From Candidatus Bathyarchaeia archaeon (lineage in GTDB: Archaea; Thermoproteota; Bathyarchaeia; 40CM-2-53-6): a stretch of 64,000 nt of DNA. The stretch covers positions 21,157-85,156 of the forward strand of contig JBEKSC010000009.1 of NCBI GenBank assembly GCA_049517415.1. Reading direction: 5' to 3'. A program made the translations under genes and the position numbers. Each line of letters starts with the position of its first letter. Position 1 is the stretch's first letter. Of the stretch, positions 18,341 to 34,659 are shown in pieces. Under the pieces are notes generated by a model. That model was not told where the DNA came from and did no database searches. It saw nothing but the letters and a program-made list of their open reading frames with translations.

Positions 18341-18542
18341 TGCAGAACCACTCCGACTCACTCGCTTGGCGCCGTATGGCATTTGGGTCGAAAAGTGGAA
18401 TCTTCTCCAAATCTAACTATTCCTCCACGCCATGATAAATATTCGCAGCGTAAGGCCAGAGCAAGCGTGCAAACTCTGAAAACAATATCACACCTCTCCC
18501 AGAGTTTAATTATATCCAGCCTCGAATTCTGGCTCGAGGCCG

Positions 18543-19097: not shown

Positions 19098-19311
19098 GGC
19101 CCGGATTGGATTCCTCGCCTGACGGGTGAGAAGTTGCTATCATCATTCAACCGGATCATTCTATCTTTCACTCCACACACGAAGCTAGATTGAGAGCCAG
19201 TCTCAATTAACTCCGCTAACCTACCAAGCGGAAGTTCGCCACCTAACCTCGGTACAGAATTCGCTAATTGAGAGTTAACCCTAAATTTCCCATTACTCTG
19301 TGCTTCGAATG

Positions 19312-19413
19312 AAGGTACCGGGGGAGCTGGGAAGGTCCCGGCTGAGAGGACGGCTCACGTCGCCGTCGACCCCGTGAACCTGATCCGGGTAATGCCGGCG
19401 TAGGGAGTGTGCT
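19312..19413 (+). ncRNA. TPP riboswitch aptamer
   Basis: GGGGAGC...GCTGAGA...GACCC.TGAACCTGATCCGGGTAATGCCGGCGTAGGGAG directly upstream of a thiamine transporter. Confidence 0.93.
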
Positions 19414-19513
19414 AAGTGAACGCAAGTCGCGCAACTTTCCGCAATCCATCCAAAGCGTTCCATATCGCTGTCCTCGGTAACCTTCAACCAAATCGTGGAG
19501 GTGAAATTGGACA

Positions 19514-20032
19514 GTGAAAATTCAAACAAAGATACTAACGGAAATCATCGCTATGGTCGCTCTGGCAGGAGTCCTTGAGTACGTTTCCGGATTTCTCCCG
19601 TTGCAGATGCCAGAAGGTGGCAGGGTGACCCTTGCCGCAATGGTCCCAATCTTCTTTGTTGCCGCACGAAGGGGTCCGCGGATTGGGATCTTGGCGGGAA
19701 TTGCTTTCGGTTTAGTGGTGCTCGTGGAAGAACCTTTCATATACCATCCAGTTCAAGTTCTGCTTGATTATCCACTGGCTTTCGGGGCACTCGGGTTAGC
19801 TGGTTTCTTCCGACACTCACCTGTGCTCGGCGTCGCGGTCGGCATAGGTGGAAGGTTCCTTTGCCATTTCACTTCAGGGCTCGTTTTCTTCGCAACGTAT
19901 GCACCAGCAGGAATGAATCCAGCACTTTATTCCGCAATATACAATGCATGGTATCTTGTTCCAGAACTCATCATCAGCTCTGTGTTCATGTTCATACTGC
20001 AAAAGAGGCATGTATTAGAAATCTATCTCTGA
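19514..20032 (+). CDS. thiT: ECF-type thiamine transporter S component
   Basis: MPEGG.VT, HPVQVLLDYPLAF, HFTSG.VFFA.YAP, YSAIYN; GGAGGTGA RBS. Confidence 0.9.
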   Translation: MKIQTKILTEIIAMVALAGVLEYVSGFLPLQMPEGGRVTLAAMVPIFFVAARRGPRIGILAGIAFGLVVLVEEPFIYHPVQVLLDYPLAFGALGLAGFFRHSPVLGVAVGIGGRFLCHFTSGLVFFATYAPAGMNPALYSAIYNAWYLVPELIISSVFMFILQKRHVLEIYL

Positions 20033-20086
20033 TTCACTACGTAGAATCGCGGAATAAAACCCCTTTTTTCTTCTCTTGTTCAACAT

Positions 20087-21166
20087 ATGAAGAGAATGGT
20101 CAGGCGAAAAATGTTGACTGGCTATCTTGGAAAAGTCAACCGAAACTACTTGGACAGAGTTATCTATCCTAGGCTCGGCGCCGTACGTCGAGAAATAATC
20201 GTTGGCCCAAGATTTGGCGTTGACAATGCAGTTGTCAGAGTTGGGGGAGGGAGAGTTCTGGTGGCAACAACCGACCCGCTGTCCTTCATCCCGGGCTTAC
20301 GCCCATCTGAATCGGCATGGCTCTCAGTCAACCTGTTAGCCTCCGATCTAACCACTTGCGGTTGCGCCCCACAGTACGGAATCTTCGACTTCAATCTGCC
20401 CCCGCAGATGAGTAATCACCAATTTGCCGAGTACTGGAAAGCTTTCCATTCTGAGTGCAAGAAGCTTGGGCTCGCAATCGTGGGGGGCCACACAGGAAAG
20501 TACCAAGGTTGCGGCTATTCGGTAATCGGGGGCGGCGTAATGTATACGGTCTGCCGTGAGGAGCGGTACCTGACGTCTGAAATGGCCGGAAGTGGCGACG
20601 ACGTCATCCTAACTAAAGGCGCAGCTGTTGAAACGACGGCAATTCTCACACGAGCATTCCCACGAAAAATCAAAAGTGTAATAGGGAGCAGGCTGTTCGA
20701 GAAGGCTCGGAATTACCTGTTCGAAGTATCGACTGTAAAAGACGCTCTCACAGCGGCTTCTGTTGGAATTCATCAGAATGGAGTAACAGCCATGCATGAC
20801 GCAACAGAGGGCGGCGTCATTGCCGCTGTCCTGGAACTTTCAAACGCATCGGGCCTCGGAGTAGAAATCGACTTGGACATTATTCCGGTATCCGAAGAGA
20901 CCCGGGAGATTTGTAAGTTCTTTCGAATCAACGCTTTGATATCCCTTAGCGAAGGGACTCTCATAATCGCGTGCCGCCCCAATAAAACTGCAAGAGTCTT
21001 GAACCAACTGAAGTCTAACGGGATCTCATCGCACGTGGTCGGCCGCTTGACAAAGACCCGATCAGCGCAGGCAACAACACGTCGAGGGCGGGTTCGTCTT
21101 ACTTATCCTAGTTTTGACCCGTATTGGAAGGCTTACCGGAAAGGAACAACGAAACGCTGGCAATGA
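20087..21166 (+). CDS. AIR synthase-like (PurM/HypE/ThiL superfamily) protein
   Basis: GVDNAV, TTDP, GGHT, MHDATEGG. Confidence 0.85.
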   Translation: MKRMVRRKMLTGYLGKVNRNYLDRVIYPRLGAVRREIIVGPRFGVDNAVVRVGGGRVLVATTDPLSFIPGLRPSESAWLSVNLLASDLTTCGCAPQYGIFDFNLPPQMSNHQFAEYWKAFHSECKKLGLAIVGGHTGKYQGCGYSVIGGGVMYTVCREERYLTSEMAGSGDDVILTKGAAVETTAILTRAFPRKIKSVIGSRLFEKARNYLFEVSTVKDALTAASVGIHQNGVTAMHDATEGGVIAAVLELSNASGLGVEIDLDIIPVSEETREICKFFRINALISLSEGTLIIACRPNKTARVLNQLKSNGISSHVVGRLTKTRSAQATTRRGRVRLTYPSFDPYWKAYRKGTTKRWQ

Positions 21167-21174
21167 ACTTCGGC

Positions 21175-21468
21175 TCAGGTTGCGGACCTAAACTTGAGGT
21201 AGCCAACTTTCTCGATGCAGTTCCTGCACCAGAACTGGTTTCGCTCCAAGGAATACTCAGCGTAGGCGTCCACAACAACCGTTCCGCAGTTCCAGCATCG
21301 GAGAAGGAGCATCCGCTTCATCTTATGATACTTCATCTCCTTCTGGTGTTCCAGCCAGATAGGGTCGCCATACTCGCAGACGACGTTGCAAACCTCGCAG
21401 AAGAAGAAATTGCCAACCACGGCTAACTCGCGTGACTCAAAGCTCGTACTTTCCGTGGTCTGGCTCAT
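21175..21468 (-). CDS. small Cys-rich zinc-finger protein
   Basis: Three CxxC motifs. Confidence 0.6.
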   Translation of the reverse strand: MSQTTESTSFESRELAVVGNFFFCEVCNVVCEYGDPIWLEHQKEMKYHKMKRMLLLRCWNCGTVVVDAYAEYSLERNQFWCRNCIEKVGYLKFRSAT

Positions 21469-21545
21469 GGCTTCTCGAATCTCGTGAGTTTTCCTCACAG
21501 AACCAATTGGACCGTACATATGCCTTTGGTTTAACCAGCCAAGAA

Positions 21546-22439
21546 TTAAGGCGAAGTTGGTTTCCAAAAATCGAGAAGGTATTCGAACGTTGTGCCCATG
21601 GTTATGTAGTTGGACGGCCAGCCGAAGATTCCTACTCTATTGACTATGTTGGTTCTGTCCCAGATGATTGTGTTCCGAAGCTCGTAACCCGCTTCAACTA
21701 AGGCATGGTGCACATGCATATGAAGTGGGACTCTCATTCCGTGTTTGTCATTCTTCCACCACATATCTGGCACATTGATGACCGCATGACCCTTGGGTTT
21801 CAGGATTGGAAGAAGACTTCTGAAAATGGTCCCCATTTGTTCCGTATATTTTTCGAAAGCTTGCGTTCCGAGATCTCTGTCGTCTTGGCTGTATTGTTCT
21901 ACCTTGAGGTACTGTTTGTTCCGCCTAAGTTCGCCTCTTCTGCTCTTGTTCGACCTCGGCCTGTTGAGGAGGTTCGCGTAGGGAGGAGAGGTGAAAATCA
22001 AACTGACTGTACCTTCTTCGAGGTATGCAGATATTCTTCGTGCATCGTCGCAGAGTACGATCTGCTGAGTTTCATGCTTCTGTCCGGCTATCTCCAGCCG
22101 CTGCCTCGCGGTAACGCAATATTGGGGGTTGATGTCAAAGCCAACCGCATTCCTCTCAATGTCCTGGCAGGCGAGTAGTGTCGTGCCGACTCCATTGAAA
22201 GGGTCTACTACAAGCTCGCCCGCGTGCGTGAATAACTCCACTGCCCTCTTGGCTAGGGCGAGGGGCATCACTGCGGGGTGTACTTCTTTGTCTCGGATGT
22301 CCCGTCTCTCGTAGAAGCATTTCCAGACTCCGATCTGTGCCTTGATCCATTCCTTAGGCGACATGCAGTTGAGGTGGTTCTCGGGGCAGTTGCATCGTCT
22401 AGCTGACGAGATTGAGACTTTGGCCGGCGTCTCTAGCAT
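21546..22439 (-). CDS. amino (N4-C/N6-A) DNA methyltransferase, orphan
   Basis: HPAVMP, DPFNGVGTT (motif I) preceding TSPPY (motif IV). Confidence 0.88.
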   Translation of the reverse strand: MLETPAKVSISSARRCNCPENHLNCMSPKEWIKAQIGVWKCFYERRDIRDKEVHPAVMPLALAKRAVELFTHAGELVVDPFNGVGTTLLACQDIERNAVGFDINPQYCVTARQRLEIAGQKHETQQIVLCDDARRISAYLEEGTVSLIFTSPPYANLLNRPRSNKSRRGELRRNKQYLKVEQYSQDDRDLGTQAFEKYTEQMGTIFRSLLPILKPKGHAVINVPDMWWKNDKHGMRVPLHMHVHHALVEAGYELRNTIIWDRTNIVNRVGIFGWPSNYITMGTTFEYLLDFWKPTSP

Positions 22440-22493
22440 AGTATTCGACCTAGGATAGTCGGATGAAGTAAAAAGCGCTCCTGAAGCTCCCCA

Positions 22494-22922
22494 CTAGATG
22501 TCAGCCGTACTCCAAACGACTACGCTAATCGGCTTGATTTTGATTAACGGCCGGTCTTCAAGATTCATCTGACGATACTGTTTGTATTTTTCCCGTAGCA
22601 GCATAACTGCTCGCTCATGAGTTCTTCCGTCGTGAATAATTTCTGCGGAGCCACGCACTATCACGTACTTCAGCTCGTTCCAATCTTCTTCGTAATGATC
22701 TACGACCAAACACACGTTGGGGTTCTCAGCAATATTCAGGACCCGCCGTAATTGGATCGGCTTTCTTCGCTTGGGCTTCTCGTCGATTGGAGTATAAATC
22801 GTGGCTCCATCGAGCACGTAACATATAGGAACAACGTGTGGTTGGCCACGCTTCGTTGAAGTAGCCAAATGTCCCAATCGGGATTCGATAAGAAGTTCGC
22901 GTGCCCATCCTTCTACTCTCAT
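22494..22922 (-). CDS. pyridoxamine 5'-phosphate oxidase-like (PPOX class) protein
   Basis: GHLAT..PHVVP..IDEKPK..NIAENP.V.LVVDHY.EDW. Confidence 0.85.
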   Translation of the reverse strand: MRVEGWARELLIESRLGHLATSTKRGQPHVVPICYVLDGATIYTPIDEKPKRRKPIQLRRVLNIAENPNVCLVVDHYEEDWNELKYVIVRGSAEIIHDGRTHERAVMLLREKYKQYRQMNLEDRPLIKIKPISVVVWSTADI

Positions 22923-22989
22923 GCCCGAACCCTTCTCATGGATGCAAAGCTCTTATTCTTCGCACGGAGATGTTGGAGGAGAATCAACT

Positions 22990-23388
22990 TTGCCCATCTT
23001 CTTCACCCCCAAGCAGGCTAATGAGTTCTTACCTCAGGTGAAGGAGACGGTCGAACGATCCATCGCAATCAAGAAAGAAGCTGACGCGTTAAAGGACGAC
23101 ACGGAGATGGCTGATGCCATGGAACGGCTCGGGAGGGAAATTCAGAAGCTTGAGGAACTCGGCTGCGTCCTGAAGGACCTGAACATCGGACTACTTGACT
23201 TCCCAGCAGTAAGGCTCGGCAAACGCGTTTGGCTCTGCTGGAAATTAGGCGAGGAGAACGTCGCCTTCTGGCATGAGCTGCATGAGGGCTACGCCGGAAG
23301 GAAGACGGCTAACGAGAAGGAATTCTACGAAGACGACGTTGCGATAAAATCGCTAACAGGCGAGGCTATCTCGAAACCGAACACTTAG
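22990..23388 (+). CDS. DUF2203 family protein
   Basis: FT..QAN..LP...KD...GL.DFP...LCWKLGE..WH...GYAGR. Confidence 0.85.
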   Translation: MPIFFTPKQANEFLPQVKETVERSIAIKKEADALKDDTEMADAMERLGREIQKLEELGCVLKDLNIGLLDFPAVRLGKRVWLCWKLGEENVAFWHELHEGYAGRKTANEKEFYEDDVAIKSLTGEAISKPNT

Positions 23389-23967
23389 CACCTGCAGCTC
23401 CTCAAAGAACAGTTGACGCTTCGCCATTACCTCGTATTGGAACTCAGGATTCACCTCAGAGATTAGAGACGCAGAATCATTCAAAGTACTGATCAAGAGT
23501 AAGGCGGTTCCATCGCAATTGAGATGCTCTCCAAGTCCGCCTAGGAACCGCTTTGACAGAGCTATGCCACCCGGTCCTCCATCGACGGTTCTGTCTTCAA
23601 CCGTTGAACTAGGCAGGTAGGGCGGGTTGAATGTGACCAGGTCGAACTTCCCTTGAACATTCGAGAACACGTCTGACAAGACTGTTTGGAGGCCTAGCGC
23701 CAGCACTCGAGCGGTCTTCTGTGCATATTCCAATGCTGACTGGTCAACATCTGTCACTGTGACATGGGCTCCACGGGATGCGCAAAATAACCCAAGAATG
23801 CCTGAGCCAGTCCCGATGTCAAGCACTTGCTTCCCTCCAACCGATATTTTCGCGATGGCGTCCAGCATTAGGAAAGTGTCGTCACTCGGGGAATAGACAT
23901 TCTTCGGCACATCTCCTATGGCATGAAGGATTTTTCTGAGAATTTCTTCGTTCTCGGCCTTTTGCAC
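23353..23967 (-). CDS. HemK2-like protein-glutamine N5 methyltransferase
   Basis: VYSPSDDTFL, DIGTGSG, FNPPYLP, DGG..G. Confidence 0.88.
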   Translation of the reverse strand: MQKAENEEILRKILHAIGDVPKNVYSPSDDTFLMLDAIAKISVGGKQVLDIGTGSGILGLFCASRGAHVTVTDVDQSALEYAQKTARVLALGLQTVLSDVFSNVQGKFDLVTFNPPYLPSSTVEDRTVDGGPGGIALSKRFLGGLGEHLNCDGTALLLISTLNDSASLISEVNPEFQYEVMAKRQLFFEELQVLSVRFRDSLAC

Positions 23968-23992
23968 GAGCCTGTTCTCTGCGCCTTTGGGC

Positions 23993-24607
23993 TTATGGTT
24001 CAGCCATGAACTTAATGAATTCTTCCCGTGTGCGCCTTTTCAATGTGTAATTGTTTCTGCGCTCGAACCCAATAGTTGAGGACGTTGTTTTTCCGTAGTC
24101 GTGGCCCGGGTAGACCTCTATTGTATCATCCAAGGGTAGGATCTTCTCTACTAGGCTATCGTACAGATCCCCAGAATTTCCGCCCGCCAAGTCTGTTCTG
24201 CCGCATTCACCAACGAACAAAGTGTCCCCTGTGAGTAGTTTTCCGTCTACGAGTAGGCAGATGTGGTCTGGGCAATGGCCTGGTGTGTGGAACACTTTCA
24301 GCTTCAACGATCCAACTTCTATAGTGTCGCCGTCCTTTACCGAAATATCCTTTCTCACGGGGGATTTCACGTGCATGACCACCTTTGCGCCTGTACGTTT
24401 AACGACGGCTTCGTTCCCTTCGATATGGTCGTGGTGGGAATGCGTATTGATGACTCGTGTAATTTTCAAACCCAATTCTTCGCATTGCGCCAGTAAATTG
24501 TCAACTTCCCAAGCAGGGTCGATCAGCGCAGCTGACTTGGTCTTCTCGTCTCCGATAATGTATGAAAAGTTCTGGAAGGTGCCAACGGGTACTTGCCTGA
24601 ATATCAT
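23993..24607 (-). CDS. metallo-beta-lactamase fold hydrolase (glyoxalase II-like)
   Basis: THSHHDH, TPGH, TGDTLF, PGHDY. Confidence 0.92.
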   Translation of the reverse strand: MIFRQVPVGTFQNFSYIIGDEKTKSAALIDPAWEVDNLLAQCEELGLKITRVINTHSHHDHIEGNEAVVKRTGAKVVMHVKSPVRKDISVKDGDTIEVGSLKLKVFHTPGHCPDHICLLVDGKLLTGDTLFVGECGRTDLAGGNSGDLYDSLVEKILPLDDTIEVYPGHDYGKTTSSTIGFERRNNYTLKRRTREEFIKFMAEP

Positions 24608-24697
24608 GGCTGCGTCGGGTAGAATGCCGGGCGAACTTTAATCAATTTCGTTTTCCTTAATTCTTGAGTGTGTACGCTTCGAGAAGGGCGTGATGCA

Positions 24698-25051
24698 ATG
24701 AGTCGACTAATTGTTTTCGAACCCGACCTCCTATTCTCATCAAGAATAGAGAGCGCCGCCGCGAAGGTTGGCTTCTCCGCAAAGGTTTTCGACAATTTAG
24801 ATGAATTTCTCCAAGAAGCCAAGCAATCGACGCCACAGGTCGCTCTCGTGAACCTTGATGTCGCAGTGGGAAAATTTGCGGTCCTGGAAGGCCTCGCCCG
24901 GAGTTCGTCTTGTAAGGTGGTCGGGTACTATTCGCACGTGAACAGCAGTTTAGCTGAAGAGGCGCAGCGCACTGGAATCAACGCCGTGTTTCCTCGAGGA
25001 GCATTCGCGAACAAACTCGAAGCGCTGTTGAGAGAGTTCTCATCAGGCTGA
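24698..25051 (+). CDS. atypical receiver-domain-like protein
   Basis: DLLFSSRI...GYYSHV beta/alpha pattern. Confidence 0.55.
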   Translation: MSRLIVFEPDLLFSSRIESAAAKVGFSAKVFDNLDEFLQEAKQSTPQVALVNLDVAVGKFAVLEGLARSSSCKVVGYYSHVNSSLAEEAQRTGINAVFPRGAFANKLEALLREFSSG

Positions 25052-25885
25052 CAGTTCCCTTACTCTTCGCATGTTCTCCTTCTCGTCGCCGCGTTCATCG
25101 ATGGGTGTTTCCATGATGAAGGGGAGGTTTCGAACCGCCTCGTGCTTGAAGAGCGCCCTGAAACCTTGTTCTCCAATGTATCCCAAGCCTATGTGCTCAT
25201 GCCTGTCCCTGCCGGAACCTAAACCGACCTGCGAATCATTCAGATGAATTACCTTCAATATGCTGAAACCCAGAATAGAATTGAATTTCCCGAGAGTGCC
25301 GTCAACGCCCCGTGGTGAGTGCAGGTCATAGCCGGCCGCGTACGCGTGCGCAGTATCGAAACAGATCCCAACGCGTTTTCTATTCTCGACTCGGTCCAAG
25401 ATTCTCTTAATGTCTTCGAAAGAGGAGCCCATGCTGTTCTTGGTTCCCGCGGTGTTTTCGAGGAGGAGCATGACGTCGTTCGGGTTCTCTGAAAGTGCGT
25501 GGTTTATTGCGTCCACAATTTTTTCTAAGCCTACGTCGGAGCCTTCACCGAGGTGGCTTCCCAGGTGTGTCACAATGTATGGGATTCCCAGCGTCCCGCA
25601 CCTATCAAGCTCGCCACTGAGCGATTTCACGGACTTGTTGTAAATTAGCTTCTTAGGCGAGGAAAGGTTCGGCAGGTAGGGCATGTGGGCTACGACGGGA
25701 GTTAGGTTGTACGACCCGACCTTCCTTTTGAATTCTGCAACTTCTCCGCGGTCAAGCTTCTTGTATTTCCAGCCCCTCGGGTTCCTGGTAAACATTTGAA
25801 ACGTGTCACAGCCTAGTTCGCGGGCGCGGTCAGCCGCTTGATCGATTGTCCCCGAAATTGAAACATGCATCCCAAGTCTGATCAA
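25043..25885 (-). CDS. nfo: endonuclease IV
   Basis: GMHVS, HMPYLPNL, LENTAG, DTAH, HLNDS, DRHEH, ETP. Confidence 0.95.
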   Translation of the reverse strand: MIRLGMHVSISGTIDQAADRARELGCDTFQMFTRNPRGWKYKKLDRGEVAEFKRKVGSYNLTPVVAHMPYLPNLSSPKKLIYNKSVKSLSGELDRCGTLGIPYIVTHLGSHLGEGSDVGLEKIVDAINHALSENPNDVMLLLENTAGTKNSMGSSFEDIKRILDRVENRKRVGICFDTAHAYAAGYDLHSPRGVDGTLGKFNSILGFSILKVIHLNDSQVGLGSGRDRHEHIGLGYIGEQGFRALFKHEAVRNLPFIMETPIDERGDEKENMRRVRELSA

Positions 25886-26019
25886 AAACCAATCTCCCCA
25901 GCGAACAATGACCAGGTTTAGAAAGAAAAGGCGTTCGATTCGCAGCGGCCTCGGATGAACCCTCAACTTTGGCAGCTTGGAAAAGTTGATATGAGAACAG
26001 ACCTCCACGGACACGCGAT

Positions 26020-26133
26020 GGCCGCCGTAGCGTAGAGGAGTCCTAAACTCCGCGAACCTTGGTAGCGTATAGACCCACTTAGGGATACAAGGCTGTGGAC
26101 CCTACGGGGCGAGTTCAAATCTCGCCGGCGGCC
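26020..26133 (+). tRNA. tRNA-His(GUG) with encoded G-1 and two non-canonical introns (~26036-26056 at 15/16; 26073-26090 at 29/30)
   Basis: Acceptor GCCGCCG/CGGCGGC plus C; after splicing the anticodon arm is TAGGG-CTGTGGA-CCCTA; T arm GCGAG-TTCAAAT-CTCGC. Confidence 0.9.
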
Positions 26134-26140
26134 CTCACCA

Positions 26141-27085
26141 TTAAGACTCCGTCGTCCTCAATTCAACGATTTTAGGGAGCTCCCTCACAAGACTTCGAAG
26201 CCGTAGATTGACTTCTTGAATTCGCTCGATAGTGCGAGGCGCGTTTAGAACAGGTGACCCGAATTCTCGCCTCATTCTGGAGATTGCGGACTCAAAAGCG
26301 GACTCCGGAATAGCTCCTGAAACCTTCAGCGTGGACATGCAGCCAGTGAGAAATGACAGACGGTCGAGCACGCTAGTTCTAGGCGGACATTCTCCAAGCT
26401 CTTCGAAGACCATCATGCGTGAGATGTGAGATGGGTTCGAGAAACCAATTTCCTTTCTCCAGAGATCGATGTCGGCAGAACCATTGATCTGTGCGATGTG
26501 GCGTGGGCGTCTTCCAAATCCACCCGGCTCGGCATTCAATCTGCAAGAAACATTGACGCCGAGTTCTCTCCCGAGAAATTTTGCCAATTCCTCAATTACC
26601 GCTCGTGCAGTCATCTTGATTTGGATCCTAGGATATTTGTGAGGCTGGGTTTTTGAGGCGTTGTAAAATCCTAGGACCCCGTCTGTGGCAAGGATTTCTC
26701 GCACGAAATACTTCATCAGACGAGCGTCGTCAAGAATGGCGGAGGGTATTGAGGGACTAATCTTTCGTCCATTAGGAAGGCCAAGGACCCTGTGCTTGAA
26801 GAGTGCAACGTTCTTGCTTTGAAATACGATGGACATCCAAGTCCTTCCAGGGTCGAGATAAACTCCAAACTTGTGGAGGTCGTATGCCGATTCGATGGTC
26901 GGAATAACATGACTTAGAAGATAGAGCTGGTCTTCCAGAGCGTTCCCTGTGATATCGTAGCAATAATTAGTGTTGGTTCCGTTTTGTCTGATGAATAGGT
27001 GACCGTCTCCAAGGTGAATGCCAGTATCGGCTGCGACCTCAGGTGTCATCGAGAACATTGCACTGTAATGTGAATCAAGATTCAT
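26141..27085 (-). CDS. free-standing double-motif LAGLIDADG endonuclease
   Basis: AADTGIHLGDGHL and FVREILATDGVL; C-terminal IGFSNP. Confidence 0.82.
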   Translation of the reverse strand: MNLDSHYSAMFSMTPEVAADTGIHLGDGHLFIRQNGTNTNYCYDITGNALEDQLYLLSHVIPTIESAYDLHKFGVYLDPGRTWMSIVFQSKNVALFKHRVLGLPNGRKISPSIPSAILDDARLMKYFVREILATDGVLGFYNASKTQPHKYPRIQIKMTARAVIEELAKFLGRELGVNVSCRLNAEPGGFGRRPRHIAQINGSADIDLWRKEIGFSNPSHISRMMVFEELGECPPRTSVLDRLSFLTGCMSTLKVSGAIPESAFESAISRMRREFGSPVLNAPRTIERIQEVNLRLRSLVRELPKIVELRTTES

Positions 27086-27141
27086 ATTCTGGGTTGGAGG
27101 TGCAGAGGATGCAAGAGTACTGTGAAACTAAGACGACCCCA

Positions 27142-27189
27142 AGGGGTTCAAAGCGTCGTTCTCGCGACGTGAAAGTCCCCTCGGCGGCC
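27142..27189 (+). pseudogene. orphan tRNA 3' portion (T arm with BHB intron plus acceptor 3' strand, His-type)
   Basis: AGGGG-TTCA-AAG-CGTCG..CGACG-TGAA-AGT-CCCCT-CGGCGGC-C; splicing would give AGGGG TTCAAAT CCCCT. Confidence 0.75.
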
Positions 27190-27265
27190 CTCAACAATTC
27201 ATTTTTGAGGCGGGAGGCGTAAATTCCTACGATAATCAGGGTGGTGGGTTAGAATCATCGATCGG

Positions 27266-27487
27266 ATGCTGAGGCGAAGCGGGCCTGGTACGTGTGAAGT
27301 CTGCGAGAGGAAACCTGCAACAAGGAAAGCGAAGTTTACTGCACAATCTCTTCAATCTACTTCTATGCCTTTGTTTGACGAGGAGTCGCTCGTTGCAGGG
27401 GAATTTGAGAAGAGGGTATGTGAAGAATGCCTAACCTTCTTGCAGAACGCGAAGAACGTAACGGACCTCACCTTCGAACGATTGTGA
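27266..27487 (+). CDS. small zinc-finger protein
   Basis: CEVC...CEEC. Confidence 0.6.
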   Translation: MLRRSGPGTCEVCERKPATRKAKFTAQSLQSTSMPLFDEESLVAGEFEKRVCEECLTFLQNAKNVTDLTFERL

Positions 27488-27599
27488 GCAAGTTTAACTC
27501 AACCTCGGACGTCGTGTTCGACAACCACTGAGAAAGAATTCTCGCTCATCCGGTCTGCGCGGAAGGGTTAAAGGTTTGAGTCAGAACGTGTAAGCAAGT

Positions 27600-27715
27600 G
27601 GGCCGGTAGTTCAGCCTGGTATGCCAAGTGTTCGCTGGGCCAAAGAACGTCCGGTTTGCAAGTTCTTCACCAAGCTTCCGGAAGGTCGCGGGTCCGAATC
27701 CCGCCCGGTCCACCA
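27600..27715 (+). tRNA. tRNA-Ala(UGC) with two introns (D loop 27623-27644; canonical 37/38 at 27661-27676) and encoded CCA
   Basis: GGGCCGG/CCGGTCC acceptor with G3:U70, both introns fold as BHB, TTAAA box about 30 nt upstream. Confidence 0.92.
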
Positions 27716-27919
27716 ATTTTAAGCCTTGCTTTTCCCGAGTTCTGACCGTTTCTTGCCCGAACGGTTCGGATTTGGGCCAGTTGGTTTTTCGGTGCTACGA
27801 GATTTCCTAATGGGTAGAAGCCCGCATAATTCTTTGATTCCAGTCCCGAGGAGCCAATTATCATCATTCAAATGTCTCAAGCAGTAAATCTACTACTGCA
27901 AAATCAATTTAACAAGTTG

Positions 27920-29179
27920 CTATGAATCCAACTTCGTCCTTGCAATTGTACTATTAATGCTCTTTCTCGTCGTATCCCATCCAAACTTACGCAGCATCAA
28001 AAGGAATACGTTCAGACGCGTTCCATCGGGAGATAACTTCTCGTAGGAACCGCCATCTTTCGATGGAAAACCTCTAACGATGAGACTGGCCAGGTGGGCC
28101 GGTTCCAAGGGAATTAGTCCAAGTCTGTTAGATTCCTTACTGTCCTCAGAAAAGGGCCAATTGGATTTGACGTCAGCGGAGGTCAGATGGGTGTCGTGAT
28201 GAGCATGGACAGAGAATTCCAAATCATCATATTCTCCAGCAAAAGCCGCCATTTTTATCCTCTTTCTAGAGGCAGCTATTCCAAGCTCTTCTCTTAGACC
28301 GCGAACCGCCGCGGCCTCAAAGTCCTTATCAGCACCTCCTCGATATGAAATATCTCCATTCATAGATTCGTCAGTTGACATGCTCCACTTGTTACCGTAA
28401 AACTCTGTTCGAGCGGATCGACGTAAGAGTACAAGCTTCTTGTCCGAGGTGGTTACACTCACATGCACGCCTACCCCTCCACCAACGAAGATGTTTCGGT
28501 AAGATCGAACCTTATTCGACCGCTTGAGAACGTGATTCCTGAAGTTTACCGGCACCCCATTTACTTCGACATGGTCCGCTTCCAGTGCATTACGGATCGC
28601 GAGAATTACACTAAATTTAACGCGTCCCAATCTAATCTTCGGGGGATTCGAAGGATCGAAGGAATCAAGTATCGGAGGAGGGTCCATTCGGTCGACGTAG
28701 AGCTTATCGCGATCTGGGCTTGGTTTCCCGTCGAGGACACGCATTCCGCCCTTAAATTTCACCATGCCCACCTCGTTCCGCTCACTGACTCTACCGTACT
28801 TGTCCGCAAGTTCATTCAGATTCGCCTCTGTAAGGCCAAATAATTTTGCAAATCTCCTGCGTCCATTACCCGCGTCAATCGACTCATCGACCGCGACGTC
28901 ATAATGGGGGGTCTTCTCATAGATGAAATGGCAGTCGGGGAAGACTGCATGTTCATCAATCGCTATCGTGTCACTCCACTTGGATTCCGGAGCTTGTCGA
29001 TTCAAGAACATCATTAAATCAGATGATGCCTGCAGGCGTGCCTTACGCAAAAGCGAAACCAACTCCACATCTCCGGCAGACGAGCGGGTCAGAGGTTTGG
29101 ATCCTCGCGTCCTCCTCTGTTCTCTAGGCCGATTGCTCCAAAAGCGTCTAAGGCCCTTCCAAGTAGAACTCAAAGGCAA
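27920..29179 (-). CDS. protein with C-terminal NUDIX-like domain
   Basis: LVLLRRS...WS....ES...AAVRGLREELGI. Confidence 0.65.
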   Translation of the reverse strand: MPLSSTWKGLRRFWSNRPREQRRTRGSKPLTRSSAGDVELVSLLRKARLQASSDLMMFLNRQAPESKWSDTIAIDEHAVFPDCHFIYEKTPHYDVAVDESIDAGNGRRRFAKLFGLTEANLNELADKYGRVSERNEVGMVKFKGGMRVLDGKPSPDRDKLYVDRMDPPPILDSFDPSNPPKIRLGRVKFSVILAIRNALEADHVEVNGVPVNFRNHVLKRSNKVRSYRNIFVGGGVGVHVSVTTSDKKLVLLRRSARTEFYGNKWSMSTDESMNGDISYRGGADKDFEAAAVRGLREELGIAASRKRIKMAAFAGEYDDLEFSVHAHHDTHLTSADVKSNWPFSEDSKESNRLGLIPLEPAHLASLIVRGFPSKDGGSYEKLSPDGTRLNVFLLMLRKFGWDTTRKSINSTIARTKLDS

Positions 29180-29329
29180 TACGAGGCATCAATCTGAAAG
29201 AATCACCTTATTATGTTTGATTTTTCATCTCTCAGGATTGTTCCCTGTCTCACTGAGCTGAGCTATTGTTCTGCGCGAAAACGCGCAAGTTAAAGCTACA
29301 TTGGCCGTTCACCTAGGTGGAAATCCATC

Positions 29330-29647
29330 TTGCCGAGACTAACCGAACGAGCCCTCTCACCAATCGTGAATGCCTCAAGGCCCGCCCTCCTTGCAGGGTT
29401 AAGCTTAACAGCCATCCAACTCGCGCAACGGAGCTTAGTACTAAGGTCTGCGCTTGTAGCCTCAACGATCTTCTACATGATAAGTTCAATCTCTTTATTC
29501 TTTTATGACGTGACACCGGAAGAGAGATCGCACAAACAAACGACGTTCAAGTCTTGGCTAACATTTCTTTGGCATGCAGCCAGTGTGACTTTCTTCTTGG
29601 GTTTGTTGCTAACGGTAGTCTCCGCCTTTCTCCTAATTCTAGTATAA
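29330..29647 (+). CDS. small membrane protein (about 3 TM)
   Basis: Hydrophobic segments; start uncertain. Confidence 0.5.
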   Translation: MPRLTERALSPIVNASRPALLAGLSLTAIQLAQRSLVLRSALVASTIFYMISSISLFFYDVTPEERSHKQTTFKSWLTFLWHAASVTFFLGLLLTVVSAFLLILV

Positions 29648-29722
29648 CCGCTTTCCTCCTCAGATATGGGGTAATTCTAATTCAGCACTATCTTAGGTGA
29701 TGAAGTAGTTGGGAACCGTAGA

Positions 29723-31558
29723 CTAGACGAAATCTGAGAGCTTGGTTGAATTCATTTTCAATTTAATGCGCATGGGTTCGAATGCTTGTGAGAGTGAGGC
29801 GTGTAGACTGAGGACGTAGTCATCGACGTCGATCTCGTTCGAGTTTGCTTGTGAGGTTGGTTTGACGGTGAATTGCCTTCCCTGTAACCTGAACGGGAGC
29901 ACCTTCACAAATCCAATCGTGTCCCCACGATCGGGCCGCCTTCCCTGCCGCTCGAGCAGCCAAGCCGCTTGGTAGGGCTGCGCAAGTCTCTTCGACCGTA
30001 CCTTCTCCGCTGGCTCTTCCCTAAGTTCAACTCGATATTCTAAGCCACCCAGACTCACGGATCTGCTACGAAGCCGGTGAGTCGCTTCGGCAACTATGTC
30101 GGTCAGCTGCTGTTTGGCAGTTTCGAATTCGGTGGGTGAGCGACGTCCTTCGGCCAGTTGAGTTAGGCATTGTTGGAAGGTTTCCTGGAAGAATCGTGGT
30201 GAGTTGGATTTGGCGATGGCTAAACCTTTGATTTCTGGTTCTCCGTTGGGTAGGATACCGAAGTAGGCTTTGATAGTGCTGAGAACACAGACCGAATAGA
30301 CGCGATCATAAGCCAATTGAAGTCTGAACTTGCTACCAACCTCTTGAATGAGCTTCCACGTCTCCTCCTCAGTTGGGTTGTCTAGGAATAGCGAATCCGT
30401 GTCGCTGTACTTCGGTCTGAGATCCATCCTCTTCGCCAAATCCCATGTGGATTGAAGGACGTATCTTCCGTAAGCTGTGATCGCCTCGCCCAGAAGTGGA
30501 CTGGCTAAGCCATGAATTCGAATTGTAACTCCGTAACAGGAGACGAGAAATAGCTTCAAAATTCGCGATGCGGCCACAACGTTACCCTCCGTCTCATCTG
30601 CTGTTTTCGTCTGGGGTTTGTAGACCTGTAGACGCAGATCACGGAGAGCGCCTACGAGAACGGAGTAGATTCCGCGTCTTTTCGTGCAAACGTGTAACTG
30701 TGGTTGGCCGGGCACCCGGTTACTTCGACATTCTGGGTGGGGGCATTGGATAGTCTCGTATGAGAGGTTGAATACGTCTATACAACCCGGGTAAAGAGAT
30801 TCGAAATCCAGGACGTGCATGTTGAAGTAAGTACCCGGCTCCGGCCCGATTGCTAAGGCACCCGTTACCTGCTTTCTCGTGTCTCCGAGGTTGAGTTCTT
30901 CAGGGTTGGGAATGAGGATGTTATGGGAGCGGTAGTAGGTGTTGAGCATTGAACGTATCCAGTCGGAGACGGAATAGTTTCTGTATGTTCGGTTTATGGG
31001 GAGGTTCGCTAAGCGGCTGAGGAGAAAGGCATTATAGTAATCTTCCTCAGAGCCAACTCCACGGATATCGAGTTTCTCTTCAGGAATCTTGGGTACGGGC
31101 TGGCTGACGTAGGCGTATGCCTCCTGCAGCGAAGCATACTTGAGTCGGTCGCTTCGGCTGATTCTTCCGAACAATTTCTCAAAGCGAGAACCATCCTCGC
31201 CGCCTAAGGAGGCATCAGGAACCCAACCGTTTTCGCTGAAACGGTGAAGGATGCCGAACCGCAGTCCCTTATCATACGCGTAGCTGAGCGCCGGATCAAT
31301 GTCCAGCTCCCAAGCTTTCGTGTCCTTCGAAGGTTTCCCTGTGTAGGTGACCTTGTTTAGTGTCAACTCGTTTCCCGTGAAGAGGTCAATTTTCTTGACG
31401 GGTTCGCCCTGTTTCTGTGTAGTGAGGTAGTATGGTTGAAAATCTCTTTCAATCCATTCAATCGATTCCAAGCCGGGCGATGTGATCAGCCTGAGAGTGA
31501 CTAACCCCGTCTTGTAGGTGGCTCCTACAAGCCACGCAGATTGACCCTCGGGAATCAA
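29723..31558 (-). CDS. family B DNA polymerase (PolB1-like) lacking the 3'-5' exonuclease domain
   Basis: Motif A VLDFESLYP, motif B KLFLVSCYG, motif C YSDTDSLF, IKGL; only 611 aa with no ExoI-III motifs. Confidence 0.88.
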   Translation of the reverse strand: MIPEGQSAWLVGATYKTGLVTLRLITSPGLESIEWIERDFQPYYLTTQKQGEPVKKIDLFTGNELTLNKVTYTGKPSKDTKAWELDIDPALSYAYDKGLRFGILHRFSENGWVPDASLGGEDGSRFEKLFGRISRSDRLKYASLQEAYAYVSQPVPKIPEEKLDIRGVGSEEDYYNAFLLSRLANLPINRTYRNYSVSDWIRSMLNTYYRSHNILIPNPEELNLGDTRKQVTGALAIGPEPGTYFNMHVLDFESLYPGCIDVFNLSYETIQCPHPECRSNRVPGQPQLHVCTKRRGIYSVLVGALRDLRLQVYKPQTKTADETEGNVVAASRILKLFLVSCYGVTIRIHGLASPLLGEAITAYGRYVLQSTWDLAKRMDLRPKYSDTDSLFLDNPTEEETWKLIQEVGSKFRLQLAYDRVYSVCVLSTIKAYFGILPNGEPEIKGLAIAKSNSPRFFQETFQQCLTQLAEGRRSPTEFETAKQQLTDIVAEATHRLRSRSVSLGGLEYRVELREEPAEKVRSKRLAQPYQAAWLLERQGRRPDRGDTIGFVKVLPFRLQGRQFTVKPTSQANSNEIDVDDYVLSLHASLSQAFEPMRIKLKMNSTKLSDFV

Positions 31559-31651
31559 GAGCGCACCTGGCTTCTAGTCTGACGAGTAATCGGTTCTCTT
31601 TAGGCTTGGAGGAAGCGACGTTCCACGCCGGAATAGTTGGAGATTGTGACT

Positions 31652-31900
31652 TCAAAAGTCTGAGGGGAGGGATTCTTCATACGTTTCTACCATTAGGCCA
31701 CCGCAATATCGGCCGCTTTCAGCTGTGAATACGATTGGAATTCTATCGATGATCTTCTCGTTGGGGTGGTTCTTAATCCAATCCCGTATCTTCTGGTCGA
31801 CTTCCAACCAGATGCGCCCGCAGATTATGACTCCAACTCGTTTCCTAGCCTTAGCTTGCATATTTTGACCATCAGAGCGAATGGGGTGAATTTTCGTCAA
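31652..31900 (-). CDS. hypothetical protein
   Basis: ATGA overlap with the upstream ORF. Confidence 0.5.
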   Translation of the reverse strand: MTKIHPIRSDGQNMQAKARKRVGVIICGRIWLEVDQKIRDWIKNHPNEKIIDRIPIVFTAESGRYCGGLMVETYEESLPSDF

Positions 31901-32424
31901 TCATATGGTCTGGGACCTCCGGCAAAAGCGCGCTGTCTTTCTCTCTTCCGCAAAATTGCCACATCGCGAGGCTCAGGTTTAGGGGGGACGGCTGCGGGTC
32001 TCTTGTAGCCGGCGCGTTGCACCTTCATGAGTTCATCGGCTGTGATGAAACCTGTCTCCTGCTGCTTCCACTGTATCGCGCGCATTTCACCCATGTCAAA
32101 GTCCGGGAGCCGGACGCGGAACACAAGCTCATCTGCCCTTCCTTCAATTTCCAACCCCAAGAGATCATAGTCGTCTGAGAGGGACAGAAAGCGGCGAATT
32201 ATCTTAACCCGGTCTGATGGCAAGGCAACTTCCTTGGATTCTACCTCCGCTTGGTCGCACCATTGGCAGATCCACGTGACATTCCTTATCAGAACGCTAG
32301 GAACCTTGAGTTTCTCGGGAGTGGAGTAGCGGCAGCCGCAGGAAATCTGTGGAGTTCTGGCCTTACAGGCTCTACACCATCGCTCCGTGCGGATAGTGTA
32401 GTTACTGCTTCCACTGAATGGCAT
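31897..32424 (-). CDS. zinc-finger hypothetical protein
   Basis: CRAC, CGC, CQWC; overlapping operon. Confidence 0.6.
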   Translation of the reverse strand: MPFSGSSNYTIRTERWCRACKARTPQISCGCRYSTPEKLKVPSVLIRNVTWICQWCDQAEVESKEVALPSDRVKIIRRFLSLSDDYDLLGLEIEGRADELVFRVRLPDFDMGEMRAIQWKQQETGFITADELMKVQRAGYKRPAAVPPKPEPRDVAILRKRERQRAFAGGPRPYD

Positions 32425-32803
32425 AGTAGTCTCTCATCTTAGGCTTAAGTTGCATAGGTTCCTCACTTCTCGGTACGAGTTCGCCGCTCTTCACCGAGTA
32501 TCTTTCATGACACCACTCGCAGGTAAGAAAGACATCGAGTGGTCCACCACAATGAGGACAACGCCGGTTCCGGACCGTGTCGATTTCTGCCTGGTGCATA
32601 ACGATGCGTTCGGCGACTGGGTCCGGCTCGGTCTTCAGCTCCTTTAGCCTGCCCTCTCTGAATCGAAACTCACGTTTGCATGAGTCGCAGCGGAAGCCCA
32701 ACTCATCAACATCGCGGCCTTGAAGTAACCGCTTACTTCGGTTTATCCAAACCAATGGCTTGTGGCAATCGAGGCAATCGGTCGAGTTAGAGTCAATTTC
32801 CAA
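32402..32803 (-). CDS. double zinc-ribbon protein
   Basis: Four CxxC motifs. Confidence 0.65.
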   Translation of the reverse strand: MEIDSNSTDCLDCHKPLVWINRSKRLLQGRDVDELGFRCDSCKREFRFREGRLKELKTEPDPVAERIVMHQAEIDTVRNRRCPHCGGPLDVFLTCEWCHERYSVKSGELVPRSEEPMQLKPKMRDYYAIQWKQ

Positions 32804-33098
32804 ATATGTTGCAACTCAGCGCCGCAAATACAGTGGGTCGACCCGTAACGGCACAAGCTCATCATTCTCTAGTTCAAACCAGAGGTTGCATTGGTCACAA
32901 CGTTTCAAGGGATAGTTCTCTTGGCCTAGAAGTTCAATTTGACAGGACGGACATTTCAAACCAGATCACAATATTTGCCGTAAACAATGCTACCGGATAA
33001 ACTCAGAAATCACTGCAAGGCTAGGAGTCAGTGATTAATGAAAATGAAATCGGGACTAACAGAGTGAAGGATGAAACTGTAAACTCTTTGCAGCATAG

Positions 33099-33308
33099 TC
33101 ATTCTTGGCTCGTCTCCTTCTCCAAGAGCCTTAATCTCGCACGTCTGAACTGTTGTTCGTCCAGTTTGTTGAAATATTCTGTTAGCGCTTGTCTTATAGC
33201 CTCAGGCTTTGATCCAACAAATCCTTTCTGGATTATCTCGTCCAGTCGCCTAGCCAATTCACCCGTGAGATCGAAATCTATTCTTGTACTATAACGGTCG
33301 TTCTGCAT
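33099..33308 (-). CDS. ribbon-helix-helix (CopG-like) protein
   Basis: RIDFDL..ELARRLDEII.KG...SK.EAIRQAL.EY. Confidence 0.8.
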   Translation of the reverse strand: MQNDRYSTRIDFDLTGELARRLDEIIQKGFVGSKPEAIRQALTEYFNKLDEQQFRRARLRLLEKETSQE

Positions 33309-33729
33309 TCTCTACCTTCTCCGCTCTTGACTCACTTCCGAGATTCGCATTCTGCCCAGCGTCAGGCCGCGAAATTCTCTCATCGTCGCCTTGACCAACC
33401 GCTCGACTCTGAATCATGGCTTCCCTTAACACGTCCGGGAGGCCGGCCGCCTGTTCTAGTTTCGTCACATTGAAAATAACAACGTATTCTTTTCTGCAGT
33501 GTTTTGTCAGCCACATTATCCTTCCGTCATTGTAAATCTTCATGTCGTTGACAATAGTGATGGGAAGACCGCACCAGATGCAGAAGACTCCGGCTGTGCT
33601 GTGAAGCTGATACTCAATTCCTGCAGAGCTGAGTTGCTTCTCGACCTCGCGTTGAGTGGTGAAGTCTTTCGGTGCTATCGAGATTATACATGCAGGGCTT
33701 TTGGTAGGTCTATAATGCAGATTCTGCAT
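33289..33729 (-). CDS. hypothetical protein
   Basis: Overlapping operon member with CIWC. Confidence 0.55.
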   Translation of the reverse strand: MQNLHYRPTKSPACIISIAPKDFTTQREVEKQLSSAGIEYQLHSTAGVFCIWCGLPITIVNDMKIYNDGRIMWLTKHCRKEYVVIFNVTKLEQAAGLPDVLREAMIQSRAVGQGDDERISRPDAGQNANLGSESRAEKVENAERPL

Positions 33730-34048
33730 TCTCAACTTTCTGCTCCTTTTGGTCTACGTTCGTCTCGAGTGGTGTGGCATCTAACTCAGCAAGAAGCAAA
33801 TCGCCATCGCTTGCAGGGGGCTCGTACGCTTCGTGAAGCTCTGATTCCATGACCGCCTCGGACAGTATTCGAGCCTCAAGTTCGCCCTTTTCAATTGAGC
33901 GTGACAACGCTTCTCTGAGATTCCACAATAGTTCTGAGTCTTGTCGTGTTCCCTCCCAATCTGCTCCTTCGAATTCGCGCAGTTCCATAGAATGTTCTTT
34001 CAGTTCATTCATGCGGTCGCTTCGTTCCAATGATTTGCCCGTGACCAT
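33710..34048 (-). CDS. acidic hypothetical protein
   Basis: Operon member with an upstream GGTGAGG RBS. Confidence 0.55.
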   Translation of the reverse strand: MVTGKSLERSDRMNELKEHSMELREFEGADWEGTRQDSELLWNLREALSRSIEKGELEARILSEAVMESELHEAYEPPASDGDLLLAELDATPLETNVDQKEQKVENAESAL

Positions 34049-34050
34049 TA

Positions 34051-34659
34051 TTATTCCCTCACCGGTTCGGCCTCGATATTCCTCTCTGGCTGAACTTCAA
34101 GCTGGTTAGAGTCTAATTCGACAAGCAGAAGCTCTAGGTCAGCGACAGGAACGTCATATAGTTCTGGACCTTTGTCGATGATGGCCTGTTGCGAGACTTC
34201 CACCAAGGGTTCAGTTAGATCAATTTCAGGTTCTTTCTGCTCGATTGTGGCTGGCCCCGTTTCCACAAATCGATTCGCTTCGAGGCCTACCTCTTGCAAG
34301 TTAGGTGGAGTCTCCGAAACGAGGTCTGTCTCAGTCTGAGATTCTTGCTTCTGGTCTGAGTCATTGCGAAGATACTTCTCCATAGCACGCCCAACAGCCT
34401 TCTCCATCAAAGCTTGATCCGGCTCAGGGCGATAGAACGTAGGCTGACGATAGCTTTCGGTAGATGGCCTTTCGATAACTTCGTAACGGGTTTCCGTCTT
34501 TGGAAGTTTTGCAGGTGATTCTTTTTCGTATCTAAAATCATGCGTTCGGAAATAGTTCCTCGGCCCTCCGTAGCCGCCTCCTCCAAGATTCGGAATGTAG
34601 GGTCGTCTCTTTGTATCGGATCTCCCAACTCGTTTACGTTTCCGCCTATAGTCTCCCAT
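34051..34659 (-). CDS. hypothetical protein with basic N-terminus and acidic C-terminus
   Basis: Abuts the ATPase stop codon. Confidence 0.6.
   Translation of the reverse strand: MGDYRRKRKRVGRSDTKRRPYIPNLGGGGYGGPRNYFRTHDFRYEKESPAKLPKTETRYEVIERPSTESYRQPTFYRPEPDQALMEKAVGRAMEKYLRNDSDQKQESQTETDLVSETPPNLQEVGLEANRFVETGPATIEQKEPEIDLTEPLVEVSQQAIIDKGPELYDVPVADLELLLVELDSNQLEVQPERNIEAEPVRE

Follow-up and report, generated by a model that had tools for sequence, protein, structure and literature searches.

Homing endonucleases usually remain harmless to their hosts by hiding in self-splicing introns or inteins. In fungal mitochondria, mobile open reading frames (mORFs) make hybrid genes, atp6 in Allomyces macrogynus and atp6, atp9, cox2 and nad3 in Glomus (PMC3630166), and C-terminal duplications of cob and atp6 accompany endonuclease open reading frames (ORFs) in Endoconidiophora (PMC6279837). 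In these elements a foreign 3' end is joined to the resident 5' part of the gene, a LAGLIDADG or GIY-YIG ORF is present, the unused 3' end lies about 1 kb downstream, a horizontal origin is inferred from the divergence between the two gene ends and, for the Allomyces mORF, the endonuclease is reported to drive mobility (PMC3630166; PMC6279837). The same layout, a foreign 3' end on a resident 5' part, an endonuclease ORF and a second 3' end, was found in a 64,000-nucleotide stretch of archaeal DNA, hereafter the window, that corresponds to contig C9:21157-85156 of a 2.65-Mb Bathyarchaeia assembly of 59 contigs (G000 denotes this genome, G0xx the genomes of relatives and L0xx the individual loci compared). 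The tRNA-His gene of this peat-soil member of the Bathyarchaeia very probably contains a homing-endonuclease cassette of about 1.03 kb. The anatomy of the locus, the predicted fold of the encoded protein, purifying selection, empty sites, recurrence beside tRNA-His genes and horizontal movement were all observed here.

The fungal mORF is the closest known kind of element. The mORF targets are organellar protein genes, whereas the target here is a chromosomal archaeal tRNA gene. Unlike those of the mORFs, the endonuclease gene of the cassette runs antisense to its host gene and is out of phase with it. End replacement is documented for fungal mitochondrial protein genes, but a literature search with subscription journals mostly outside its coverage turned up no description of an archaeal tRNA gene whose end had been replaced by an endonuclease cassette, and nothing that linked LAGLIDADG proteins to Bathyarchaeia.

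Other described systems share parts of the arrangement. SegB of phage T4, a GIY-YIG homing endonuclease, is encoded by a free-standing gene within a cluster of tRNA genes, and its recognition site includes the conserved T-psi-C stem-loop motif of such genes (PMC2330249). The gene likewise stands free beside tRNA genes and is co-inherited with the flanking tRNA markers, but it belongs to another enzyme family and a phage host, the accessible part of that report describes no duplicated gene end, and cleavage was demonstrated for SegB whereas it is presumed for the present enzyme. A heterogeneous tRNA-Thr(GGU) locus in Caldiarchaeum subterraneum, with a tRNA gene, an insert and a stranded fragment, was proposed as a route to disrupted tRNA genes (PMC3293823). 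The order of tRNA gene, 1-2 kb insert and stranded tRNA fragment is the same, but the Caldiarchaeum insert encodes a DNA recombinase and the stranded fragment is a 5' one, whereas here there is a homing endonuclease only and the stranded fragment is a 3' one. I-DmoI and I-Tsp061I, like the present protein, are archaeal enzymes in which a single chain contains two LAGLIDADG motifs. Their genes sit inside bulge-helix-bulge (BHB) introns of rRNA genes, whereas the ORF in the window is outside the tRNA gene and on the strand opposite to it. The product of the ORF is 18-19% identical to these enzymes and is longer at the C-terminus by a helical region of about 80 residues.

Between 25700 and 27500 the window held, in order, the endonuclease IV gene nfo, a tRNA gene, an antisense ORF of 314 amino acids, and a second T arm with its acceptor strand. 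The parts of the cassette are a replacement T arm, acceptor strand and trailer, the antisense LAGLIDADG gene 7 nt away, and an orphan 3' fragment beyond the start of that gene. The working chimeric tRNA-His(GUG) gene occupied 26020..26133 on the forward strand, with G-1 at 26020, and scored 29.9 bits against the Rfam tRNA model over 26021-26133 (gathering threshold 29 bits) in an alignment that showed two 29-nt insertions. Comparison with relatives placed the exons at 26020-26035, 26058-26072 and 26091-26133. The D loop is interrupted by a 22-nt intron (26036-26057, forward strand), with limits taken from L004, a locus without it, and the anticodon stem by an 18-nt intron (26073-26090, forward strand), with limits taken from L027, which lacks that one; each of these limits may be shifted by one or two bases. 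ARAGORN fails on the multi-intron tRNA-His gene and returned no tRNA in the window, which is why the gene was examined with Rfam and by manual comparison; once the two introns had been removed in silico, ARAGORN read the spliced form as tRNA-His(gtg). The positions of tRNA-His introns vary by genus: they lie in the anticodon stem in the genus of the window, and within the anticodon itself (CTG, intron, TGGA) in sister-genus loci that include L003 and L029.

The 5' part of the gene and both introns resemble the genes of the same genus (93% identity to L012 over 112 nt). The same-genus tRNA-His genes without the ORF match it only up to TTCAAA, and have an intron thereafter. The replacement 3' end (26109..26137, forward strand) consists of the intron-less T arm GCGAG/TTCAAAT/CTCGC, with the GCGAG/CTCGC arm at 26109-26125, the acceptor strand CGGCGGC, the discriminator C and the trailer CTCA. 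The left crossover falls somewhere in 26091-26109, where donor and resident have the same sequence. The GCGAG arm recurs beside related endonuclease genes at many loci. To judge by these alignments, the working gene is a chimera of a resident 5' part with two introns and the intron-less T arm of the cassette, which agrees with the proposal in a preliminary description of this DNA that the cassette supplies a recoded 3' part.

The orphan tRNA-His 3' fragment (27142..27193, forward strand) was delimited by a repeat search, folding and the alleles of relatives. Its T stem is made up of AGGGG at 27142-27146 and CCCCT at 27177-27181, its T loop of 27147-27152 and 27176 with a BHB intron (27153-27175) between them, and these are followed by the acceptor strand (27182-27188), the discriminator (27189) and the trailer CTCA (27190-27193). 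The sequence CGGCGGCCCTCA occurred exactly twice in the window, at 26126 and at 27182; with at most 1 mismatch allowed, matches averaged 0.23 per shuffled sequence, and two or more were seen in 3 of 100 shuffles. The intron can be drawn as a helix, a 3-nt bulge, a 4-bp helix, a 3-nt bulge and a helix at -14.7 kcal/mol (minimum free energy -18.7), and the functional genes of relatives have the same intron in the same place. Upstream of the orphan a 5' half is missing, and a search of the 2.65-Mb assembly that allowed up to 3 mismatches in 16 nt gave no further tRNA-His 5' end. The preliminary description had reported an intact tRNA-His, a repeat at these two positions bracketing an antisense ORF, T arms that differ (GCGAG/CTCGC in the working gene, AGGGG/CCCCT in the orphan), a BHB intron and a missing 5' half, all of which were confirmed, the repeat by exact search and the arms by direct reading. 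The possibility that the ORF lies inside a giant T-loop intron running from 26120 to 27175 was dismissed, because GCGAG cannot pair with CCCCT.

When G000 and 60 relatives were searched with the tRNA-His DNA, 39 of these 61 genomes gave a match. For most genomes of the same genus the match ended at the TTCAAA of the T loop, because their genes contain a third, T-loop intron of the type found in the orphan. The sequence that followed the gene in L012-L015 was the one that follows the orphan in the window. L013 could be aligned to 25000-26126 at 90.9% and to 27144-27716 at 89.6% identity, with 17 nt of its T arm used twice, and by this alignment the window has about 1.03 kb of extra sequence, in which a new T arm with its acceptor strand is followed by the ORF and the region upstream of the ORF. 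The preliminary description had proposed a comparison with the nfo-tRNA-His locus of relatives without the ORF; these had neither the GCGAG arm nor the orphan, and a single tRNA-His gene with a T-loop intron was joined to the flank that lies beyond the orphan in the window, an outcome in favour of the homing interpretation given there. Presence and absence with precise empty sites in close relatives, as expected of a mobile element, was therefore found. In addition, a short contig in three of four peat sequencing runs joined 26119 to 27165 via a 12-nt stretch of a relative's T-loop intron. The flanks of these empty-site contigs were about 8% diverged, so they represent a co-occurring relative and not the same strain without the cassette.

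The ORF at 26141..27085 on the reverse strand, by its predicted fold and Foldseek matches, is a free-standing gene for a monomeric double-LAGLIDADG homing endonuclease of 314 amino acids. Its stop codon is 7 nt from the discriminator base of the tRNA, the two genes being convergent, and it is neither within a BHB intron of a host RNA gene nor on the sense strand. A search of 5.8 billion proteins gave 106 homologues, every named one of which was called hypothetical; a precomputed match to PF14528 (LAGLIDADG_3) was attached to one of the 106. The AlphaFold2 model, built on an alignment of 46 homologues, had a pLDDT of 92.2 and a pTM of 0.90 and consisted of two alpha-beta-beta-alpha-beta-beta-alpha halves of the type seen in monomers with two LAGLIDADG helices. 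The elements of the first half in this model were helix 15-27, strands 28-35 and 38-48, helix 53-68 and strands 74-77 and 83-88, those of the second half were helix 121-135, strands 136-142 and 150-158, helix 161-175 and strands 179-188 and 191-201, and a helical C-terminal extension covered approximately residues 218-297. Foldseek returned 144 matches in the PDB at E <= 0.001. Endonucleases and maturases of the LAGLIDADG type made up the top ones listed, and among compact structures I-DmoI (2vs8, TMt 0.76) and I-Tsp061I (2dch, TMt 0.74) matched best. Helix 15-27 ends at Asp27, in the motif G-D-G, which was at least 90% conserved in the 46 sequences, and helix 121-135 ends at Asp135, in T-D-G, which was invariant. 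The top phmmer matches among PDB sequences, ene-reductases with E values of 0.05 or weaker, were dismissed as chance.

In five of eight homologue comparisons the synonymous divergence (dS) was unsaturated, it being saturated in the other three, and the ratio of nonsynonymous to synonymous divergence (dN/dS) in these five was 0.157, 0.151, 0.117, 0.114 and 0.079, so the protein is maintained by purifying selection. No paralogue was found in its own genome by tblastn. Sequence comparison assigned 27086..27141 (reverse strand), the right end of the cassette, to the upstream region of the gene. A GAAACT-type motif recurs ahead of the orphan in related loci (G000, L039, L042, L058 and L091 were compared), and the endonuclease promoter presumably lies within this region.

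Homologues were found beside the same gene elsewhere. Among the 60 relatives, close homologues (53-64% identity) were present in four, G015, G023, G024 and G028, and distant ones (26-33% identity) in seven more; the G015 copy was interrupted by TAA. The patchiness of the close homologues among the relatives speaks for mobility. Scans of genomes and metagenomes gave 86 loci, which formed 52 clusters at 97% nucleotide identity. A tRNA-His 3' end adjoined the C-terminus of the endonuclease, on the opposite strand, in all 42 of the clusters with at least 150 nt of room, and the 5' acceptor motif was also present in 40 of these. Where the room was 250 nt or more (44 clusters), an orphan 3' fragment lay at most 500 nt beyond the N-terminal end of the endonuclease in 24; both counts include the window's own cluster. 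Most orphans start within the 5' strand of the T stem (profile positions 13-15), while the start of others falls in the variable loop or within the intron. Wherever both T arms were readable, that of the working gene differed from that of the orphan. The working T stems pair at five of five positions where they were parsed, and many orphan stems do not. Rfam, applied to nine homologue loci, gave only sub-threshold tmRNA-like matches over the intron-bearing tRNAs.

The interrupted G015 copy (L005/L022, G015:C35:845-1766) was the only close homologue in the genus of the window among the genomes searched, and its orphan is still present; a TAA-split gene is an expected decay stage of a homing endonuclease gene. 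The same layout of tRNA, antisense endonuclease and orphan was seen with another tRNA (acceptor CCCGCGG...) in L006 and L007 (G011:C4 and G004:C42, approximately 1287-2534). There a complete multi-intron tRNA is followed by an antisense endonuclease of 282 amino acids, 31% identical to the ORF in the window, and the orphan, whose T arm contains an additional insert, reaches as far back as the anticodon region. In L008 and L009 (G001:C5 and G021:C184) a homologue of 366-368 amino acids (28% identical) is encoded upstream of another multi-intron tRNA and shares its strand. The homologue gene of L009 is directly followed by an orphan 3' fragment of this tRNA, and a short repeat of the 5' acceptor strand precedes it.

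The history of the endonuclease gene was compared with that of its host using nfo as the host marker; these are comparisons of identity only. The four closest relatives (nfo identity 95, 90, 89 and 87%) have no endonuclease gene. L056 has an nfo gene 87% identical to that of G000 and an endonuclease 57% identical, and L044 has the reverse, 77% for nfo and 85% for the endonuclease. The metagenome contigs L039 and L041 have flanks with 90% nucleotide identity over 537 nt and endonuclease genes with 69%. Because the identities of endonuclease and host flank disagree, the cassette moves horizontally. The arms of the last two contigs are also swapped: the working gene of L039 has a GCGAG arm and its orphan a CCCCT arm, while in L041 AGGGG/CCCCT is the working arm and the orphan has one of the CTCGC type. 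In L044, approximately 330 nt past the start of the endonuclease, an intron-less orphan is fused to the apparent start of a small downstream ORF, a complete copy of which lies more than 1 kb further on, and the sequence of this locus points to a more complex history.

The orphan does not resemble the 3' end that would be expected in this lineage. The T-stem type tracks nfo similarity among the cassette-free genomes of the genus: GTGGG at 87-95% nfo identity to G000, GCGGG at 80-81%, AGGGG at 72-78%, CCGGG at 75-76% and CGGGG at 69-71%, with one exception, L017 (71%), which has GTGGG. The T arm and intron of the orphan (40 nt) were identical at 39 of 40 positions to the functional AGGGG alleles of L019, L020 and L021 (nfo 72-78%), and at only 30-31 of 40-41 to the alleles of the four closest relatives (nfo 87-95%). 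The DNA just after the orphan trailer is of the closest relatives' type. The suggestion in the preliminary description that the carried 3' part had displaced the original one is, as worded, not supported by these identities. As its sequence is closer to the alleles of distant congeners, the orphan probably arrived with the cassette and is not the lineage's own displaced end. In this respect the locus departs from the mORFs, in which the native end clusters with close relatives; the unused end in G000 is probably not the native end of the recipient. The most economical account, towards which the balance tips somewhat, is the entry of the whole block, new arm, endonuclease gene and orphan arm together, from a genome of the AGGGG group, with loss of the resident GTGGG arm. 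The crossovers of such an entry would lie in conserved tRNA sequence, the left one within 26091-26109 and the right one in the acceptor strand and trailer at 27182-27193. Alternatively, the lineage may already have carried an AGGGG allele. The orphan of L056, a close relative with a different endonuclease lineage, does carry a stem of the resident type.

A homing cassette would operate as follows. The endonuclease would cut cassette-free tRNA-His genes in or near the DNA of the T arm, and the break would be repaired from a cassette-bearing allele, with homology on both sides provided by conserved tRNA sequence, the anticodon-to-variable region on the left and the acceptor strand of the orphan on the right. 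The spread of the cassette would thus be independent of the neighbouring genes, and the tRNA would be functional without splicing of the element. A more elaborate proposal, which we hold only tentatively, is that the cassette is a self-contained unit whose own enzyme spares the T arm it carries, in which the acceptor strand of a fossil orphan serves as the right homology arm, so that the block could hop between the tRNA-His genes of different genera with nothing but tRNA sequence as homology on either side. Reciprocal arms, with GCGAG displacing AGGGG in G000 and L039 and AGGGG displacing the CTCGC type in L041, would suggest an arms race over the T stem.

Several observations weigh against the homing-cassette explanation. 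Cleavage, the position of the cut, the resistance of the carried arm and the use of the orphan as a homology arm are matters that we infer. The term double LAGLIDADG, used in the preliminary description, is upheld by the predicted fold (AlphaFold2 and Foldseek) but not by the profile search: Pfam gave no family for the ORF at E values up to 10, and NCBIfam gave only weak matches to intein-bearing DnaB (E 0.016) and IF-2 (E 0.18) models. A control with a mismatched T stem was also scored as tRNA-His by ARAGORN, so the reading of the spliced form does not discriminate and the integrity of the T stem is not judged by it. The profile used to search for tRNA ends was trained on the endonuclease-adjacent ends themselves. 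No orphan was detected at E < 1e-3 in 20 of the 44 clusters with room for one, so the orphan is not obligatory or it decays. The T-loop insert was kept in 33 of 48 parsed working genes, 15 being intron-less, and loss of the T-loop intron is consequently not a general protective change. The endonuclease-linked arms AGGGG (L041) and GTGGG (L056) equal arms that are orphaned or uninvaded elsewhere, and no consensus for a sensitive as opposed to a resistant target could be derived from the alleles compared. Finally, the empty-site contigs from metagenomes, which come from the relative with about 8% divergence, give no polymorphism within one population.

One rival explanation is that the locus is a relic or non-autonomous derivative of an integrase-type integrative element, in which the endonuclease is cargo and the recombinase is elsewhere or lost. 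Such elements produce the same attL/attR topology at a tRNA gene, with a chimeric gene, an insert and an orphan 3' end, and they too rebuild the tRNA from their own 3' copy and leave the host 3' end at the far junction. There is an archaeal precedent in a tRNA fragment, a 1.8-kb recombinase-bearing insert and a tRNA gene (Sugahara et al. 2012, PMC3293823). However, no integrase or recombinase family of Pfam was matched in the ORFs scanned over 16493-36765, approximately 9 kb on each side; the scan covered 19 of the 29 ORFs of at least 110 amino acids listed over 17000-36000, together with the 73-amino acid ORF at 27266-27487. The preliminary description had stated that no integrase is present and that the cassette is free of one, and both statements held for the ORFs scanned in this 16.5-36.8 kb interval, where the insert has a single gene and no integrase family was matched nearby. 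That one gene adjoins tRNA-His in 42 of 42 clusters and is under purifying selection, and the start of the orphan varies by locus, from the variable loop to inside the intron, with no fixed crossover point. An integrase-type origin is on this evidence unlikely.

A second rival holds that the locus is a local accident without present mobility: a duplication of the tRNA-His 3' end beside a long-resident, possibly domesticated LAGLIDADG gene that was inherited vertically and lost in most lineages. The linkage of gene and tRNA is indeed old, being conserved across at least three genera, and the 20 of 44 clusters without a detectable orphan fit this history. Vertical descent is nevertheless quite unlikely, given the clean empty sites in the closest relatives, the working and orphan arms that come from different allele types, the 69% nucleotide identity of the endonuclease genes of L039 and L041 against 90% for their flanks, and the discordant identities of nfo and endonuclease. 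A third possibility, also raised in the preliminary description, is that a split tRNA-His has its 3' half at 27142-27193 and is completed in trans by a 5' half encoded elsewhere. It draws on the intact T stem and well-formed BHB intron of the orphan, but it is highly improbable: at up to 3 mismatches in 16 nt the 100%-complete assembly has a single tRNA-His 5' end, and this is already paired with a 3' end of its own; the counterparts of the fragment in other genomes often show a broken T stem or no T-loop start; and cassette-free relatives have no such fragment.

If the homing-cassette explanation holds, the harmlessness that other homing endonucleases owe to introns and inteins has seemingly been reached in a cellular chromosome by bringing along a spare end of an essential tRNA gene. 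It would link selfish nucleases to the non-canonical introns, mosaic genes and stray fragments of archaeal tRNA genes. It would also add about 100 uncharacterised nucleases, missed by Pfam, with likely targets of the 20-bp class in a universally conserved gene. Were the arms race real, T stems would be recoded, T-loop introns gained and lost and orphan pieces shed, a concrete and testable way in which archaeal tRNA genes could have become mosaic, rich in introns and fragmented.

The left host flank is nfo itself (25043..26014, reverse strand; Pfam AP_endonuc_2, E 5.9e-52), which is 95% identical in amino acid sequence to that of L013 and syntenic with relatives. The right host flank is a small cysteine-rich ORF of 73 amino acids (27266..27487, forward strand), also 95% identical to that of L013 and syntenic in cassette-free relatives. 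Completeness of the G000 assembly, estimated from marker genes, was 100%. Single contigs spanned 26027-27271 in three metagenome runs, and in a fourth run one 8452-nt contig covered the entire stretch of the locus. The layout of tRNA, ORF and orphan is thus not an assembly artefact or misjoin, since single metagenome contigs span the junctions, with the reservation that some of the runs may be the source of the assembly itself. The sequencing runs that contain the locus are peat, wetland and soil metagenomes, and the named homologues of the ORF all come from soil bins labelled Candidatus Bathyarchaeota or Bathyarchaeia, except for one labelled Crenarchaeota archaeon.

A genome-wide look for repeated tRNA 3' ends in G000 returned mostly paralogous protein genes. 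On contig C11 (14678-15969) a tRNA-like gene, read as tRNA-Pro by ARAGORN, is followed by an ORF for an HtrA-like protease and then by an orphan 3' end, 29 nt long, that exactly repeats the T arm and acceptor strand of the gene together with CCA; no further 5' acceptor strand lies close by. The giant introns that ARAGORN reported on C4, C57 and C58 were rejected as false joins that contain ordinary genes. A repeat of approximately 95 nt, with CACACAC runs and a T-loop-like motif, occurs twice on the reverse strand of C39, at about 11125 and 15292 (4167 nt apart), and related pieces lie on C8 at about 18875 and 20621; these repeats may be the ends of another element.

Synteny with L013, the closest relative, ends at 27716. 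The reverse strand past 27717 encodes a NUDIX-domain protein, a family-B DNA polymerase ORF of 611 amino acids and a HerA/TraG-like ATPase (27920-29179, 29723-31558 and 34660-36765), and the region from 27717 onward may be a second inserted element that is unrelated to the tRNA. On the other side of the locus, a thiamine pyrophosphate (TPP) riboswitch was found at 19310-19424 on the forward strand (70.9 bits, gathering threshold 54.3), directly upstream of the gene for a Thia_YuaJ thiamine transporter (19514-20032, forward strand), an ordinary pairing.

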